IMG/VR virus record: IMGVR_UViG_3300042875_000419
DNA from: a virus
Lineage: Duplodnaviria; Heunggongvirae; Uroviricota; Caudoviricetes
Strand: one strand, 5' to 3'
Length of the DNA stretch: 64,000 nucleotides
Under the pieces are notes generated by a model, which was given only the letters and a program-made list of their open reading frames with translations, was not told the origin of the DNA and ran no database searches. This document shows, piece by piece, positions 1-56,624 of this stretch (position 1 is the first letter of the stretch; every line of letters begins with the position of its first letter). The position numbers and the translations under genes are program-made.

Positions 1-3000
1 GACCAGCACCTTGACCAATGAAGGTGTTGTGGGAGCCAGTGGTGTTGTTGCGGCCGGCACAGCGACCAATGAAGGTGTTGTAGCTACCGGTGGTGTTGCT
101 GAAACCAGCACATTGACCAGCAAAGAAGTTGTCTCTGCCAGTGGTGTTGCAGAGACCAGCAGAGTTACCAAAGAAGGTGTTGTAGTTACCGGTGGTGTTG
201 AAGAAACCAGCACAGCGACCAATGAAGTTGTTACTGTCGCCGCCAGTGGTGTTGCAGCGGCCAGCACAGAATCCAGCAAAGAAGTTGTTGGTACCTCCAC
301 CGCCTGTGCCACTTATACAACTTACAATGTTTGTTGTATTACATACGTTGAAACTTGTGGTACCTTGTGCACCTATGGGTCCGATAGGTCCTTGTGGTCC
401 AATAGGTCCGATTGGTCCAATAGGTCCAATAGGTCCGATGGGTCCGATAGGTCCCTGTGGTCCAATATTACCAATAGGTCCAATAGGTCCCTGTGGTCCA
501 GTATTACCAATGGGTCCGATAGGTCCTTGTGGTCCAATAGGTCCAATAGGTCCAATAGGTCCAATAGGTCCTTGTGGTCCAATAGGTCCAATAGGTCCAA
601 TAGGTCCCTGTGGTCCGATAGGCCCGATTGGTCCAATAGGTCCCTGTGGTCCAATAGGTCCGATTGGTCCGATGGGTCCCTGTGGTCCAGTATTACCAAT
701 GGGTCCGATAGGTCCTTGTGGTCCGATAGGCCCGATTGGTCCAATAGGTCCTTGTGGTCCAATAGGTCCGATTGGTCCAATAGGTCCTTGTGGTCCGATG
801 GGTCCGATTGGTCCGATGGGTCCCTGTGGTCCAGTATTACCAATGGGTCCAATAGGTCCTTGTGGTCCGATAGGTCCGATTGGTCCAATAGGTCCTTGTG
901 GTCCAATAGGTCCTTGTGGTCCAATAGGTCCGATTGGTCCAATAGGTCCGATTGGTCCAATAGGTCCGATTGGTCCAATAGGTCCTTGTGGTCCAATGTT
1001 ACCTGCTCTAGTGAATTGCACCATCACTAAATCATTGTCAGTGAATGTGCCCACACCAGAAACGTATGTGAGAACAACTGTTCTGAAGCCTGTTGAATCT
1101 GTTACTGTACCTATAGCAAATACTGCATATTTCGATGTTGGTGAACCAAACACAGAAAGTCTGATGTAACCTTTGATTGCACTGTTTGATTGACCCCATT
1201 CTGTAAGTATGGTAGAAATATCATTACCATATGTGTCAAGGTTATCAAAGTAACCAGCGGTTGCAGAAGAAATTGTAGCATTGTTCAGTCGGAAGAAACC
1301 TGCACCAGGGTCTGCGGCTGTAATTGTTGTTGAATACTGTTGTGCAACACCAAGAACTGCACCGGAGTTAACAACGTTGGAAGAAATTCTTGAATTTACA
1401 TCCAACCTCATCTGATTGATTCTGTTTGCTGTAGCGGCTTGTGTTGTACTTGTGCTTGTATCAGTGTCGTTCAACTGAACAATACCAGCATTGTTTACGT
1501 TAGCTGTATACTTTTCAGTAACGATTGTATTAAATGTGTTAGGGTTAGCACCAGAAATCTCACGTATTTTCCACATGCTATCAGCATTATCAAATCTAAT
1601 ATAAGCATTTGGTGAGAAAGCTGGACCAATTGTACTTGTTCCAAGATTTGTTGTAAGTGTTCCCGCTGAAACATTAACAGTAACAACAAAAGTAAATGAA
1701 GTCGAGTTTACATTTGTTACAGTCCAAGTACCATTCAATTTAGTTTGTTGTGTACCTGTTGCACCTGCAACTGTTATGGATTGTCCAGTGGCTACTGTAA
1801 CTGCACCGGCATGGTTACATGTTACAGTTGTAGTTCCATCACCAACAAAGTTTGTTGGTGTTATACCAGAAGTTGTCGATAACTGTCGTTGTACACCGAA
1901 TTGTGCGGTTTGTGATGCTGTGATTGGTGTTGCACCGTACAAGTCAAACTCTGCGGAGTTATAAACTGTGCCACCATCGATAACAAAGTTACCTTTAACA
2001 GTTAAATCTTTACCAGCAATAATTGAGTTGTTTGCAAAGATGTTATTTACGTTGATATTTGCAGTGTAAATGTCTGTATTAGCAGTCAAGAACTTTACGT
2101 TAATGTTATCAACAACAGAAATATATTGTACGTTTGCAGATTGTAGGTTAGCTATACCATTGGATGTTAATCTGTTCGTATATACATGTGTGACTGCTGA
2201 AATTGAACCAGCGTTCATAGTGTTTGCGTTAGCAATACCAACAATATTAGCCGAAGCGGCATTGATAGCGTTAATAATGTTTGCTGAACCACCAGAGAGT
2301 GTGGTGTTAGCCGTGATTGTACCACCGACTAAGGATGTGTTGGCAATTATCGTAGCAATTCTAGCGGAGCCGGCATCTAATAAACCAACTACGTTAGCTG
2401 AACCAACATTCAATTGGGTATTAGCCGTGATTGTACCACCGACTAAGGATGTGTTGGCAATTATCGTAGCAATTCTAGCGGAGCCGGCATCCAGTAGGCC
2501 AACAATGTTAGCCGAATCGGCATTTAGTTGTGTGTTAGCAGTGATTGTACCACCAATAACTGTTGTCACCGCAGACAATGTGCCAGTGTTCATAGTGTTT
2601 GCGTTAGCAATACCAACAATGTTAGCAGAACCACCAGATAGTATAGTGTTAGCCGTGATTGTACCACCAATTAATCCAGTGTTAGCAACAATATTTCCAC
2701 CTTGAATTCTGGTGGAGAATGATTCTGTTGTTGTTACATATGAATTTGAATTCAATGACATTACATACGCAGTACTGGATGTATATAATGATGCTGTGTT
2801 CACCATTGTGTTGGCGGAAACGGAATCTACATTCAATTGACCAGCCAAAACTGCCGATCCAGCAACGTTCAAAGTTCCAAGTGATGTGATGGAACTATTG
2901 GCGGCCAATGTTGTTGAATCTACGGTATTAGCATAGAGAATGCCAGTGTTAACGTATGAGTTAGCAGTAATACCTTTAATGTTTGCCGTATCCGCATAAA

Positions 3001-32891: not shown

Positions 32892-33767
32892 TTATTCTTC
32901 GGCTAGCTTAGAGAAATAAGCCAAATCATCATCATCTTCGGCAATACCGGCATCCGCCATCACTGGCTTACGTGGCATTGCTTTAGCTTGTTCAACTGTA
33001 GTCTTAGCAACTACTGGTGAACCATCAAGGCCGAGAACCTTGTCTAGGCGAGCCTTCAACTCATCATAAGACTTAAAGTTTTCTGGCAACAGAAACTCTT
33101 TGAGTGAGTATTCTTTCTTCCAGATAGCTTCTAGCTTTGCATCGTCATTCAACAATGCAGATGGTGACTCAAATTCAGACTTATCATAGTTCTGATAACC
33201 CTCAACTTTACGAATCTTGAGTTTGAAGTTTGCACCTTCCCACATATCAAATGGGTTGAGTGGCTTTTCATCTTCGAAAGCAGGATTCATCGCTTCGTTA
33301 ATCTTATCAAAGATTTTCTTACCAAACTTGTACAGAAACACTTTACCTTGATTCTGAGGATTCTTAGAATCTTCAACAACGTAGATATTTGCAATGTAAG
33401 ACAGACGGCGCTTTTGTTTACGTGCAACTTCCTTGTTTGCTTCGATGCCAGAGTTCCACAACTGAGAGTTGTATTCAGAAACTGGATCTTTTTGATTCAA
33501 GGTTGTAAGAGAGTTTTCAATGTACCAGCCACCAGGACCCTGGAAACCGTGATTGAATACTTTTACCCACGGGAGTGCATCATCACCATCAACCGATGGC
33601 TGAGGCAAGAAACGAATAACTGCATAACCATTGCCGACTTTATCGACTTCTGGTTTCCAGAAATTGTCATCTTTGGTGGGAGTTTCGGCTGAATTGAGTT
33701 TTTCAATAGCCTTGGCGAGTTTGTCTAGGTTACTAGAACTGCTCTTGAGATTTGCGAATGAAGACAT
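32892..33767 (-). CDS. gp32: Single-stranded DNA-binding protein gp32. Start taken at internal Met 33767 with RBS AAGGAAAATACT.
   Basis: GNGYAVIRFLPQ...NHGFQGPGGWYIEN matches T4 gp32 GNGQAVIRFLPSK...NHGFKKNGKWYIET. Acidic C-terminal tail (EDDDDLAYF). Confidence 0.85.
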   Translation of the reverse strand: MSSFANLKSSSSNLDKLAKAIEKLNSAETPTKDDNFWKPEVDKVGNGYAVIRFLPQPSVDGDDALPWVKVFNHGFQGPGGWYIENSLTTLNQKDPVSEYNSQLWNSGIEANKEVARKQKRRLSYIANIYVVEDSKNPQNQGKVFLYKFGKKIFDKINEAMNPAFEDEKPLNPFDMWEGANFKLKIRKVEGYQNYDKSEFESPSALLNDDAKLEAIWKKEYSLKEFLLPENFKSYDELKARLDKVLGLDGSPVVAKTTVEQAKAMPRKPVMADAGIAEDDDDLAYFSKLAEE

Positions 33768-33849
33768 AGTATTTTCCTTGTATGACGTTGTATTAAATGT
33801 ATTTCGAATTATCCACATATTTCATAATGTATGAATTATATAGGCACAC

Positions 33850-36461: not shown

Positions 36462-36588
36462 AGATGGCTATCAAGCAGCCATCAAAAAGCGACTTTCGTT
36501 TGCTTTTACTTTGATTTAGTTTTTACACCTACTCTGGTGAGTTGTCCACTTCTGTACTCTTGACCCAATCGATCCTGTGTCAGGCCCA

Positions 36589-36819
36589 TCATAAAGATTT
36601 TATTTTGGAAACGATATCATAAACTTTAGAGTATATTTCGGTTATATCATCTAACTGATTTTCAGTTACTGATTTATTCTGTTCTAGTTGAACTAGATCC
36701 TTGGCCAAGTTTTCTTGTAACTCTTTTAGTTTATCTGTATCATCCACATAAAATCCTTGTGGTGGACCTGGCGGGCACTGCCCCCGCGTCTTGAATCCGT
36801 TTCTAGTTGCTTCATACAA
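36589..36819 (-). CDS. Hypothetical small protein (76 aa).
   Basis: ORF only. Confidence 0.35.
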   Translation of the reverse strand: MYEATRNGFKTRGQCPPGPPQGFYVDDTDKLKELQENLAKDLVQLEQNKSVTENQLDDITEIYSKVYDIVSKIKSL

Positions 36820-36855
36820 CCATAACCTTTATTATAAAGGTTCTTTATTTAGTTG

Positions 36856-53588: not shown

Positions 53589-53849
53589 TTACCGCTTATA
53601 ATGAACAGGGCGCTCATAACGACCATCAGAATCCCGATAGAGAGAAACATAATGACCGTGCTTTGAACCATCATCAAAAGTATATGAGAAAGAAGAATCG
53701 TAAGAGAGCGGAGGGAAGTTAAGTTCCCAAGATTCCAATAATCCTTCTGATTCTAATGCAGAATTCAGAGTGGGAAAATAGTTTTGTTTTGAAACTTTAT
53801 ACATTGAATAAATCTCCATACATTTCTTCATCAAACGAATCAAAATCAT
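53589..53849 (-). CDS. Hypothetical protein (86 aa).
   Basis: ORF. Preferred over the overlapping plus ORF 53495..53722. Confidence 0.35.
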   Translation of the reverse strand: MILIRLMKKCMEIYSMYKVSKQNYFPTLNSALESEGLLESWELNFPPLSYDSSFSYTFDDGSKHGHYVSLYRDSDGRYERPVHYKR

Positions 53850-54039
53850 TCCGAATCCATTCGATGGTGTATCCGTTCAGTGCATAGTTATCAGCCATAG
53901 CCTGGAGACGGCGGAGGGCTTGTTCAGCATTCAGACCCATGCTTGCCATTAGGCTCAGGTTGCTCCAGTGAGCAAAGTTATTGGAGTCCTTATGTGCGGA
54001 GACTTGAATGAATTGTTTGGGTGTGTTTGTTTGTGTCAT
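53797..54039 (-). CDS. Hypothetical protein (80 aa). First gene downstream of the DnaA-box/promoter region.
   Basis: ATG at 54039 lies 7 nt downstream of the TATAAT at 54047-54052. Confidence 0.4.
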   Translation of the reverse strand: MTQTNTPKQFIQVSAHKDSNNFAHWSNLSLMASMGLNAEQALRRLQAMADNYALNGYTIEWIRNDFDSFDEEMYGDLFNV

Positions 54040-54046
54040 GGATGGT

Positions 54047-54074
54047 ATTATAGCGGTACTGGTAGGAATGGCAA
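54047..54074 (-). promoter_or_regulatory. Sigma70-type promoter module copy (TTGCCA-N16-TATAAT, minus strand) with the DnaA-box array 45-90 bp upstream.
   Basis: Reverse complement reads TTGCCATTCCTACCAGTACCGCTATAATACCATCCATG. Confidence 0.55.
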
Positions 54075-54118
54075 TGGAATATTTTGCGGAAAACTTCGTC
54101 TGTTGTATAAAAGAGACT

Positions 54119-54161
54119 GTGGATAAGTGTGTGGATAAGTTGTGGATAAGTTGTGGATATC
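54119..54161. promoter_or_regulatory. Array of four co-oriented DnaA boxes with 11-12 bp phasing. Three are perfect TGTGGATAA (i.e. TTATCCACA); the fourth is TGTGGATAT.
   Basis: ctgTGTGGATAAgtgTGTGGATAAgtTGTGGATAAgtTGTGGATATc, read directly from the sequence. Confidence 0.6.
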
Positions 54162-54485
54162 TTTGAGGACCTTAATAACTGACCAGTCAGTCAGTAGGTC
54201 GCTGGATGTGTCGCGGTGTGTCGGAAGTGTTGGGTTGCTATTTAGTCTTAGTTGCTGGCTGCCAACGCCTGAAAATTTCACAGAGTGTCTCAGAGGTGAC
54301 AGCACGTTTCCGCACGTTCCAATGGGTTCCAGTGGGTTCCAGCACGGTTTGGAATGTTTTGCTCTGTGTGGGTCTCAGAATGTCTCAGAGTGGTGCTGGA
54401 TGCCCATTGGAAAACCATCAGGCAGCCTCTACGTCCACCCCCAGTCTTGCTGTTCGAACCAATGGATCCATTGTACTCTAAAAAA

Positions 54486-54518
54486 GACCACCTGGCAACC
54501 ACCAGGTGTCTCATCTAC
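54486..54518 (-). terminator. Rho-independent terminator (7-bp stem cacctgg/ccaggtg, loop caacca, T-run on the minus strand) ending the minus early operon of the GC-rich island.
   Basis: aaaaaagaccacctggcaaccaccaggtg, 7 nt downstream of the stop at 54525. Confidence 0.6.
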
Positions 54519-54524
54519 GCAACA

Positions 54525-54746
54525 TCACTCCTCTTCGGAGAATCCTTCAATCAGCACTATTTGGTCCTCATAATAGTTCCGTTCCTCCTCCATGCACAGG
54601 TTGCCCTCGACCTCGAACACCAGGTCCGTGGCTGTCTTTTCGTCACATCCAGTGGAGGTCATAACGAATTGAATAATGTCCTCAAACGTATCACCATTGG
54701 TGATGCACGATTCGATATCGATAATCAAGTCTTTAAATTTGCTCAT
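54525..54746 (-). CDS. Small acidic protein (73 aa).
   Basis: ORF in the GC-rich island. Confidence 0.4.
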   Translation of the reverse strand: MSKFKDLIIDIESCITNGDTFEDIIQFVMTSTGCDEKTATDLVFEVEGNLCMEEERNYYEDQIVLIEGFSEEE

Positions 54747-55866: not shown

Positions 55867-55887
55867 ACCAATACTTGACCGGACAGG

Positions 55888-56175
55888 TCAACAATCAGCA
55901 TCAAAATCCGCCCACTCTTGGGCTTCGTCCGGCTGACCGTCATCCTCATCCTCGGTCTCCATCTCATCCTCGGTGAGACCTTCCACGAAAACGTCTTCCT
56001 CGGTCAAGGAATCCACGTAGTCGTTAAAACCGCACCGATAGGCTACCGGGTCGACCTCACGCAGGACCTCGGAAGCGGAATAGGTCATTCCGCACAGTTC
56101 CACCGGACCTTCACAGTCGTCCAGCATCTCATCAAACCATGCATGGGCGGTGCGCTCAGATATTAAACGGGACAT
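55888..56175 (-). CDS. Early protein with a strongly acidic C-terminal tail (95 aa).
   Basis: C-terminus EDEMETEDEDDGQPDEAQEWADFDADC. Promoter copy immediately upstream. Confidence 0.45.
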   Translation of the reverse strand: MSRLISERTAHAWFDEMLDDCEGPVELCGMTYSASEVLREVDPVAYRCGFNDYVDSLTEEDVFVEGLTEDEMETEDEDDGQPDEAQEWADFDADC

Positions 56176-56235: not shown

Positions 56236-56255
56236 CCAATACTTGACCGGAATGG

Positions 56256-56468
56256 TCAACTATCAAATTCGCAGGACTGGTCCAGGTACAGGCTCAGTTC
56301 CTCGGCTTGGTTCAGGATTCGAGCCACTTCCATGGCCTCATCCTCACATTGGAACCGTTCTACGGACTCGCCAGTGTGGACACCGTTGGACAATGGGGAC
56401 CAGCGGATCACATGGAAGTCCATGGTTTTGTCGTGGTGTTCTACAGTGTAGGTTTTTGTGTTCATCAT
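56256..56468 (-). CDS. Small protein (71 aa from the MM start).
   Basis: ATG 7 nt downstream of the -10 of promoter copy 56475-56502. Confidence 0.35.
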   Translation of the reverse strand: MMNTKTYTVEHHDKTMDFHVIRWSPLSNGVHTGESVERFQCEDEAMEVARILNQAEELSLYLDQSCEFDS

Positions 56469-56474
56469 GTCTTG

Positions 56475-56502
56475 GATTCTACAGGTTCCAGCAGGTTTGG
56501 CA
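56475..56502 (-). promoter_or_regulatory. Promoter module copy (TTGCCA-N16-TAGAAT, minus).
   Basis: Reverse complement reads TTGCCAAACCTGCTGGAACCTGTAGAAT. Confidence 0.45.
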
Positions 56503-56596
56503 ACCATTTTGGATATACTTGACCGGAGTGCTGGGTTATTATTATGACGCCCAGCCTCCACGTCCACCCCGCCTTCCGCTTCGAATCATGGTACCA

Positions 56597-56624
56597 ATTA
56601 TACCAGAACCAGCAGGGAAGGCAA
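56597..56624 (-). promoter_or_regulatory. Promoter module copy (TTGCCT-N16-TATAAT, minus), tandem with the previous copy.
   Basis: Reverse complement reads TTGCCTTCCCTGCTGGTTCTGGTATAAT. Confidence 0.45.

Follow-up and report, generated by a model that had tools for sequence, protein, structure and literature searches.

The uncultured phage IMGVR_UViG_3300042875_000419, of which a stretch of 64,000 nucleotides (nt) was analyzed (hereafter, the window), carries an array of four DnaA boxes in the untranslated leader of a short transcription unit, between an upstream promoter (P_up) and a second promoter (P_down) that precedes an early gene. All results reported here were obtained by computational sequence analysis. 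We strongly infer that the array is a genuine, selected predicted DnaA-binding array, because it is conserved in related phages with the gaps of 2–3 base pairs (bp) preferred by Escherichia coli DnaA. Our best guess as to its role, to which we assign a probability of roughly 0.35, is that the locus would act as a DnaA-gated early transcription unit. The leader starts with a compact pseudoknot RNA followed by a possible micro-open reading frame (micro-ORF), and this element, with >50 instances in uncultured phage contigs and covariation among them, is a candidate new RNA family.

The DnaA-Box Array and Its Conservation

Perfect copies of the box TGTGGATAA were found on the plus strand at 54118–54126, 54130–54138, and 54141–54149, followed by a fourth box, TGTGGATAT, at 54152–54160 (+), which is an 8/9 match. 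An earlier reading of the same DNA, hereafter the original prediction, had reported four perfect boxes; three are indeed perfect, the fourth is not, and the coordinates given were one base off. The single orientation and 11–12-bp spacing that it described were borne out, with start-to-start distances of 12, 11, and 11 bp (gaps of 3, 2, and 2 bp), phased as cooperative DnaA binding requires. Read on the minus strand, the array is ATATCCACA-AC-TTATCCACA-AC-TTATCCACA-CAC-TTATCCACA. E. coli DnaA binds in vivo mainly to box pairs 2 or 3 bp apart, and one extra bp between paired boxes greatly lowers its binding (Stringer, Fitzgerald, and Wade 2024; PMC11317965). The array shows the features of a cooperative DnaA site, namely at least two matches to TTWTNCACA, the same orientation, gaps of 2–3 bp, and 9-mers that outlast their spacers.

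A scan of the window agreed with the supposition that the cluster is unique. Perfect 9-mers (TGTGGATAA/TTATCCACA) occur four times compared with 0.95 expected, three of them within 32 bp, while relaxed boxes (TTWTNCACA) are at chance level (13 vs. 14.2 expected); with just one perfect box elsewhere, the cluster is therefore unique in the window. That sole other perfect box, at 33809–33817 (−), overlaps the start codon of a gp32 homolog (32892..33818) and is probably a chance occurrence. Tandem Repeats Finder described the array as an 11-bp unit, TGTGGATAAGT, present in 3.7 copies. Since the array is a tandem repeat, a fairer null is the chance that an 11-bp unit holds a perfect box. For either orientation this comes to ~22/4^9 = 8e-5, or ~0.004 over the 45 repeat rows of the window (by arithmetic).

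Related contigs were retrieved via the neighboring AAA ATPase (phrog_1250). This is the nearby P-loop NTPase to which the original prediction had drawn attention, and it has no demonstrable link to the array. The prediction had also staked itself on conservation in related phages, and the array is kept in position: relatives with 90–100% ATPase identity carry it in the same place, with two to three perfect boxes plus degenerate ones that include TTCTCAACA, TTCTCCACA, TTATTCACA, and TTATCAACA. Seven distinct relatives retain the boxes, whereas their spacers differ (AC, GT, GG, GC, GCT, CAC) and the copy number ranges from two to six. Orientation and the 11–12-bp phase are constant, and the gaps are 2 or 3 bp throughout. 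Between the array and the −35 of P_down, the distance ranges over ~32–88 bp, about three-fold, and the array always lies within DNA transcribed from P_up. In one relative (L002, IMGVR_UViG_3300032316_000768; ATPase 99% identical), four CACTACCTATAGCGTCC-like repeats replace the boxes at ~1650–1790, which is the behavior expected of an exchangeable protein-binding cassette.

Two further repeats were observed. In an unrelated contig, L074, the RNA element is followed by a long 35-bp tandem array of ACCTATAGC, a core related to the L002 repeat. A 16-bp near-palindrome, ATGCAnTATAnTGCAT, lies between the array and P_down in L001, L003, L005, and L006, but the window does not contain it; it resembles the operator of a dimeric protein.

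Anatomy of the Locus

The genes around the array all lie on the minus strand, and transcription reads from 54746 toward 53797 (Table 1). Both the promoter and the 80-amino-acid (aa) open reading frame (ORF) that the original prediction had placed downstream of the boxes were recovered (P_down and ORF 53797..54039). Its terminator at 54486–54518 was partly sustained. The hairpin and T-run are present; they end the upstream minus-strand gene, however, and overlap P_up, which had been missed. The terminator is kept in all T4-like relatives, its 3′ arm contains the −35 of P_up, and P_up itself is aligned and conserved in relatives, there with TATAAT. P_down is likewise conserved in the relatives' alignment. 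Because P_up transcribes the GC-rich region toward the boxes, 54161–54470 is a transcribed leader that begins with the pseudoknot element, and not DNA downstream of the array as had been supposed.

Table 1. Coordinates of the features at the array locus, with the second element copy of the window.
Feature	Coordinates	Strand	Basis or remarks
73-aa gene	54746..54525	−	Upstream of terminator
Intrinsic terminator of 73-aa gene	54508..54480	−	Terminator scan; hairpin 54508..54489, 8-bp stem, 4-nt loop, T-run
Promoter P_up, sigma70-type	54498..54470	−	TTGCCA-N17-TACAAT, 10/12 matches
5′ RNA element (pseudoknot)	54467..54424	−	Covariance-model match, 63.9 bits
Possible micro-ORF MDVEAA*	54438..54418	−	GTG GAC GTA GAG GCT GCC TGA; directly after pseudoknot
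Untranslated spacer	54417..54161	−	C 29%, G 19% on sense strand; short repeats
DnaA-box array	54160..54118	−	Three perfect boxes and one 8/9 box
Promoter P_down, sigma70	54074..54047	−	TTGCCA-N16-TATAAT, 11/12 matches
80-aa early gene	54039..53797	−	ATG 7 nt after P_down −10, no Shine-Dalgarno
Second, diverged element copy	56594..56553	−	Covariance-model match, 31.1 bits; no DnaA boxes

The description of the region as non-coding and repeat-rich held. No ORF in 54161–54470 is conserved across relatives, which show frame-breaking indels, and short repeats are present in the leader (GGTTCCAGTG ×2.7 and TCTCAGAG-type copies). The spacer is highly variable between close relatives, and its sense-strand composition stays at C 27–31% and G 18–20% in all of them. 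The terminator scan found no intrinsic terminator between P_up and the boxes. Folded globally on either strand, 54160–54470 has the same minimum free energy as shuffled sequences (z = −0.5 and −0.7). Of the structured non-coding RNA that had been suggested for this region, only the first ~40 nt thus stood, as a pseudoknot with covariation. A gap of 43 bp separates the array from P_down, placing the boxes 44–86 bp upstream of its −35. The position of the ATG and the missing Shine-Dalgarno sequence make a leaderless mRNA from P_down probable.

No Pfam or PHROG family matched the 80-aa gene, and its homologs are unnamed. The family gave >250 matches at E ≤ 0.001; among the matches listed, most are 74 aa long and 71–98% identical, and many large contigs of freshwater phages, up to 374 kb in length, encode a member. 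Homologs elsewhere (L100–L107) have their own TTGACA-N17-TATAAT promoter and a Shine-Dalgarno leader, without DnaA boxes. Some JGI records mislabel this family as RlmN. Farther upstream in the window, a conserved hairpin and spacer, TTGACCnnnCCGGTCAAGTATTGG, directly precedes the −35 at each of two strong early promoters (55867 and 56235), with copies at 55875–55891 and 56243–56259 (−). It also precedes promoters in L005 and L006 and may be a terminator-like insulator or an UP-like element.

A 5′ Pseudoknot Element with a Possible Micro-ORF

The first ~40 nt of the P_up transcript are almost invariant between relatives, unlike the rest of the leader. A search pattern made from these ~40 nt (TTCGAACAGC-N2-3-ACTGGGGNTGGAC) matched 39 contigs from metagenomes and several from IMG/VR, and the genomic contexts of these are unrelated. 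Apart from L079, likely a chance match, each has the element right behind a strong TTGACA/TATAAT promoter in the same orientation. A looser scan with a profile filter added ~30 further, more diverse instances, and a covariance model was used to align 61 instances from 55 sources.

In this alignment, three bases before R-UUCGAA pair with three bases after CAG to form helix 1 (UUG/CAA in the window), and CAG/CUG forms helix 2. The 3′ strand of helix 1 sits in the loop of helix 2, which gives an H-type pseudoknot. In the window, the helices interleave around the loop GUUCGAA, followed by GGG-GUG-GAC-G. Anchored counts showed that helix 2, with the variants CUG/CAG, CUA/UAG, GAG/CUC, and UAG/CUG, pairs in 42/42 canonical sequences, and that the middle pair of helix 1 is AU in 11, UA in 20, GC in 9, CG in 5, and UG in 1. 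Pair counting, in an alignment that had been fitted to helix 2, found double changes at 6/6 pairs and 91.3% paired cells compared with 78.3% in shuffles. The observed score was reached by 0/500 shuffles, and slid partners scored much lower. On this comparative evidence, both helices of the predicted structure are maintained by compensatory changes, and the H-type pseudoknot is supported. A first RNAalifold run on 23 sequences had returned just the invariant CAG/CUG helix with no covariation, which became visible only after the looser collection scan.

The pseudoknot is followed by GGG-(A/G)UG-GAC. Taken as a start codon, the (A/G)UG opens a micro-ORF, M-D-(V/G)-E-(G/A/S/C)-(G/A)-(R/Q/stop). 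Across 60 distinct instances, micro-ORF lengths cluster at 6 and 11 codons and third positions vary in a synonymous-like manner, a pattern that suggests translation.

Rfam returned no family for the 54161–54470 transcript even at E ≤ 10, with three sub-threshold snoRNA matches at 13–14 bits, and a literature query by the sequence of the element found nothing. The element is absent from GenBank phages, and cultured phages share neither the locus nor the element. It is also absent from 185,579 bacterial and archaeal species genomes but for one chance match, on which ground a host-derived sequence or prophage attachment site was rejected. The presence of a permuted transfer-messenger RNA (tmRNA) gene in the window had prompted a tRNA/tmRNA-like reading of GGTTCGAA...GGGGRUG. 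This was rejected as a mere resemblance, since ARAGORN and Rfam were negative and the distances misfit an acceptor/T-arm. A link to the GP88 gene (PF17338) was likewise rejected; three contexts and the window have this gene in the vicinity of the element, but its distance and orientation are inconsistent.

The second, diverged copy of the element in the window stands in a similar setting. From 56650 to 56476, the order is a hairpin, a TTGCCT-N16-TATAAT promoter (56624..56597), the element, a TTGCCA-N16-TAGAAT promoter (56503..56476), and an ATG. The downstream promoter lies ~50 nt past the element, the ATG comes 7 nt after its −10, and the downstream gene (ORF 56256..56567) is read in the same frame as the element's GTG. 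Two copies of the element were also found in contigs L143, L156, L161, and L111.

DnaA Boxes Downstream of the Element in Other Phages

The loci compared in this section were fetched by the RNA pattern, not by the box sequence. Within 700 nt of the element, 39 perfect boxes were found downstream (38.2 kb) and 0 upstream (39.4 kb), where ~0.3 would be expected by chance (by arithmetic). At least one perfect box lies downstream in 15/61 distinct contexts, and nine of these 15 are non-T4-like (L091, L117, L132, L205, L138, L140, L214, L220, and L204). As the association of element and boxes recurs outside the T4-like lineage, the array in the window can be read as one instance of a wider module. 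Podovirus-like contigs show the order promoter, pseudoknot, conserved hairpin, two to eight boxes, and a terminator embedding TTGACA. Their boxes are often 2–3 bp apart, sometimes in both orientations, and include TTGTCCACA and TTATACACA variants. Because orientation is mixed across lineages, we read the boxes as acting in double-stranded DNA rather than in RNA, and recognition as double-stranded DNA is the expectation for DnaA.

We tentatively suggest that promoter, pseudoknot/micro-ORF, and boxes could together form an undescribed cis-acting module that moves horizontally among freshwater phages and serves as a DnaA-gated riboregulatory switch or, alternatively, as a portable origin. The unit occurs in myovirus-like and podovirus-like phages, and it would bring a leader RNA and host DnaA onto the same short transcription unit. 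As a switch, the module would time early gene expression to the host cell cycle; as an origin, it would be portable, with host factors being sufficient.

Other tandem arrays were also noted. In L092, L075, L067, L087, and L091, 11-bp-phased AAGTGTG(A/G)AAA arrays lie at ~+450 to +650 from the element. Some of their units are TGTGGAAAA, the reverse complement of TTTTCCACA, which we take to be a cyanobacterial DnaA-box variant. Repeated CAGCGGGGTCTAT(A/T)GT motifs near these arrays may be phage-polymerase promoters. An exact tandem 22-mer, TGTGGATAAGTTGTGGATAAGT, occurs in intergenic DNA of 27 other IMG/VR contigs (L026–L052), many of them unrelated, and in L032, L034, and L042 the gene beside it matches Pfam terminase large-subunit families. 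Such placement suggests that many phages carry tandem DnaA boxes close to genome ends or in early regions. In bajarodmic virus 581 (PQ006781; Microviridae, gut; L110, 401–446), four TGTGGATAAG boxes follow one another in 12-bp phase, starting in the last codons of the replication-initiator gene and running into the intergenic region.

Tests for a Replication Origin

The original prediction had compared the array to the DnaA-trio arrangement of oriC, a likeness that did not survive closer inspection. No run of at least three [T/A]A[G/A] triplets was found in 54030–54260 on either strand. No AT-rich unwinding element lies by the boxes, where AT reaches at most 65% per 40-bp window and 40–57% on the transcribed side (genome average ~61%); GC in the transcribed spacer is 50–60%. 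The IHF consensus WATCAANNNNTTR has no match in 53951–54560, and just one GATC is present rather than a cluster. No Rep or DnaA-like family was found among the 40 ORFs in 49–64 kb, nor in the immediate neighbors. Cumulative GC skew, which had been proposed as a check, has no inflection at 54 kb; over the 64 kb available, it follows gene strand, and the strand switch lies ~3 kb from the array, near 57.0–57.6 kb.

Other origin and titration types were compared with the locus. For the R-loop type of T4 oriF/oriG, a promoter is present, but the downstream DNA is 43–60% GC and the RNA is C-rich. For Rep/iteron origins (P1 oriR, F, and RK2), there is neither an adjacent Rep gene nor any 17–22-bp iteron. 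A titrating locus of the datA type combines a box cluster with an IHF site, and the IHF site is missing. T4 oriE, which the locus resembles in architecture, consists of an early promoter and evenly spaced 12-nt repeats, whose iteron role in T4 itself is unproven (PMC3016281). Its repeats are coding repeats of gene 5, unrelated in sequence and not DnaA boxes, and the 9.5 kb to either side of oriE contain no DnaA box. Given the absence of trios, unwinding element, Rep gene, and skew inflection, and the dispensability of the boxes, an oriC-type or Rep-type origin at the array is excluded.

Proposed Role of the Array and Its Alternatives

Under DnaA-gated transcription, a DnaA oligomer on the array would act on transcription and not on replication. 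It would stall or block RNA polymerase on its way from P_up. The RNA trailing the halted enzyme, being untranslated, C-rich, and G-poor, would be a Rho-type substrate, favoring termination, and the block would insulate and tune P_down and the early genes beyond it. Read-through from P_up and the freedom of P_down from interference would then depend on the level of active DnaA in the infected cell, and the module would read out host replication or growth state. The pseudoknot and micro-ORF might provide a second input on the same transcript through translation- or structure-coupled termination control. DnaA is an established transcription factor and an orientation-dependent transcription block. 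Polymerase starting at P_up would always meet the boxes in untranslated DNA, ahead of a terminator or the following promoter. The variable distance between array and P_down speaks against activation at a fixed geometry and suits a roadblock. Since the phage has its own T4-type gp32 and gp59, it would have no need of DnaA for helicase loading.

Several points weigh against such a gate. Rho enters the model through base composition, and the boxes were judged by the E. coli consensus, a preference that the host is assumed to share. Where plasmids and phages carry clusters of at least four DnaA boxes, these classically belong to origins, and in L138 and L204 boxes in both orientations flank AT-rich DNA in a divergent intergenic, origin-like setting. 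The more distant T4-like contigs L083 and L090 keep the promoter–pseudoknot unit without boxes; these units and the box-free second copy in the window indicate that the boxes are an optional add-on whose loss is tolerated.

The roles that had been listed for the array at the outset (origin, regulated promoter or sensor, and titration) all remain candidates. The main rival to gating, which we consider somewhat less likely, is a transcription-activated, DnaA-assisted origin or auxiliary origin. Here, the P_up transcript would open or prime the DNA as at T4 oriE/oriF or ColE1, array-bound DnaA would stabilize the opening or recruit helicase, and the cassette would be mobile and use host factors only. 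The recurrence of a non-coding, repeat-rich, promoter-bearing unit in myovirus-like and podovirus-like contigs speaks for it, as do the position of the podovirus-like unit in a divergent intergenic region with boxes both ways and, in L138, the AT-rich stretch between box groups. The repeat exchange in L002 could be a swap of initiator specificity, and pBR322/ColE1 offers a precedent in which a structured primer RNA is combined with a TTATCCACA box. All of this has to be set against the missing AT-rich unwinding element, DnaA-trios, IHF site, Rep-like gene, and skew inflection in the window, and against a C-rich, G-poor RNA that disfavors a stable R-loop. The boxes are moreover dispensable in relatives, the oriE iterons are coding and have no DnaA box nearby, and the phage carries gp59 and gp32.

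A DnaA decoy is unlikely. Multiplying phage genomes would soak up host DnaA and so shut down new host chromosome initiation or perturb DnaA-regulated host genes. Perfect-consensus, optimally spaced boxes should bind with high affinity, copy-number drift is as expected if total dosage matters, and chromosomal DnaA titration is a documented principle (PMC12371093). Four sites per genome are few, however, no datA-type IHF site is present, and a decoy leaves unexplained the constant leader position, the orientation in T4-like phages, and the strictly downstream association with the element. T4-like phages also usually degrade or shut off the host chromosome anyway. We give still less credence to the repeats being iterons or operators for a phage-encoded DNA-binding protein, their identity with DnaA boxes being coincidence or mimicry. 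The different repeat at the same position in L002 and the 11-bp-phased AAGTGTG(A/G)AAA arrays of podovirus-like contigs would fit, but the exact 9-mer consensus recurs in unrelated phage lineages, and the variants TTATTCACA, TTGTCCACA, and TTATACACA are known DnaA-box variants. No gene for a DNA-binding protein co-varies with the array, and Pfam identified no DnaA-domain-IV-like protein among the 40 neighboring ORFs. The least probable of these explanations, with a very slim chance, is that membrane-associated DnaA anchors the genome as it enters or replicates, as hypothesized for the T5-like injection-stop region. T5-like phages do conserve boxes in pairs in a non-origin region, and the tandem 22-mer TGTGGATAAGTTGTGGATAAGT stands beside genes matching terminase large-subunit families in three contigs, which would put it near a genome end. 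The T5 role is itself just a hypothesis, though, the T5 inverted-repeat architecture is absent (the inverted repeats found are short and unrelated), and circular permutation leaves T4-like genomes without a fixed leading end.

Comparison with Known Systems

T4-like phages are not known to depend on host DnaA, and no report linking DnaA boxes to T4-like phages or cyanophages was found in the literature. Outside phages, DnaA-box clusters of Bacillus subtilis located away from oriC regulate neighboring genes. These clusters and the double boxes of the E. coli DnaA regulon (PMC11317965) resemble the array in consisting of direct TTATCCACA boxes with 2–3-bp gaps in promoter-adjacent, non-coding DNA. 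Unlike chromosomal boxes, the array lies in a lytic T4-like phage, with four to six boxes in a row, inside the leader of one promoter and upstream of another, and is coupled to a pseudoknot RNA.

Among phages, the closest precedent is T5. T5-like phages conserve eight DnaA boxes, paired with 3 bp between them, in a region that is rich in repeats, does not code for protein, and is not their origin (bioRxiv 10.1101/866236). There too, a lytic phage with its own replisome keeps paired boxes in untranslated, repeat-rich DNA, and their function is unproven. The T5 iss boxes lie in large inverted repeats (IRC/IRD) of the terminal repeat, whereas here a simple direct array occupies an internal early region, and a promoter–pseudoknot unit has not been described for T5. 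T4 oriE, from the same phage family, shares an early-type promoter, an untranslated transcript, and evenly spaced 11–12-nt direct repeats; it differs in that its repeats are coding repeats of gene 5 rather than DnaA boxes, while the locus described here has no A+T-rich unwinding element and a C-rich transcript. ColE1/pBR322, P1 oriR, F, RK2, and pSC101 likewise bring host RNA polymerase, structured non-coding RNA, and TTATCCACA boxes into one cis unit. In contrast to these plasmid and phage origins, no Rep gene or 17–22-bp iterons were found here, nothing points to an RNase H or Pol I switch site, and box orientation and distance differ.

The RNA element also invites comparison with small H-type pseudoknot leaders that govern initiation or termination, among them the preQ1-I, SAM-II, and guanidine-III riboswitch classes. 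Like them, it is a compact pseudoknot, here of ~21 nt with a conserved tail, and it opens a transcript directly ahead of a start codon. It differs in its 3-bp helices, has no Rfam match, and shows no obvious sequestration of a Shine-Dalgarno sequence; riboswitch membership is not claimed. DnaA-box clusters are thus known already, as are boxes in a lytic phage through the T5 precedent, while a pseudoknot/micro-ORF element coupled to DnaA boxes may, judging from its sequence, be a new kind of element. Optimal box spacing conserved in a T4-like phage, and likewise the recurrence of boxes behind the RNA element in unrelated phages, would imply that lytic phages read or exploit the replication-initiation state of the host, which has a bearing on how phages time infection in slow-growing or cell-cycle-synchronized hosts. 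Given E. coli-consensus boxes and sigma70-consensus promoters, these hypotheses are directly testable in E. coli.

The Phage and Other Features of the Window

T4-type baseplate wedge proteins are encoded in the window, together with gp32, the gp59 helicase loader, PhoH, a CobS-like ATPase, and a 2OG-Fe(II) oxygenase. No close phage was found in GenBank, where the best nucleotide matches are short stretches of Synechococcus phage CobS genes. The relatives are all IMG/VR or metagenome contigs and, judging from sample names, appear to be of freshwater origin. From the CobS similarity and the permuted tmRNA, we guess, and it is only a guess, that the host is a freshwater picocyanobacterium.

The permuted (two-piece) tmRNA gene is complete and lies at 36471–36821 (−), with an Rfam RF04321 score of 91.3 bits compared with a gathering score of 47. 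Translation of the aligned frame gives a tag of approximately ANESRFLMAA; ARAGORN made no call. This gene may be a clue to the host lineage. At the start of the window (378–997), a long 18/36-bp tandem repeat, GGTCCAATAGGTCCTTGT, is present in 17–33 copies; our guess is that it encodes, on the opposite strand, a collagen-like Gly-X-Y repeat of a structural protein.

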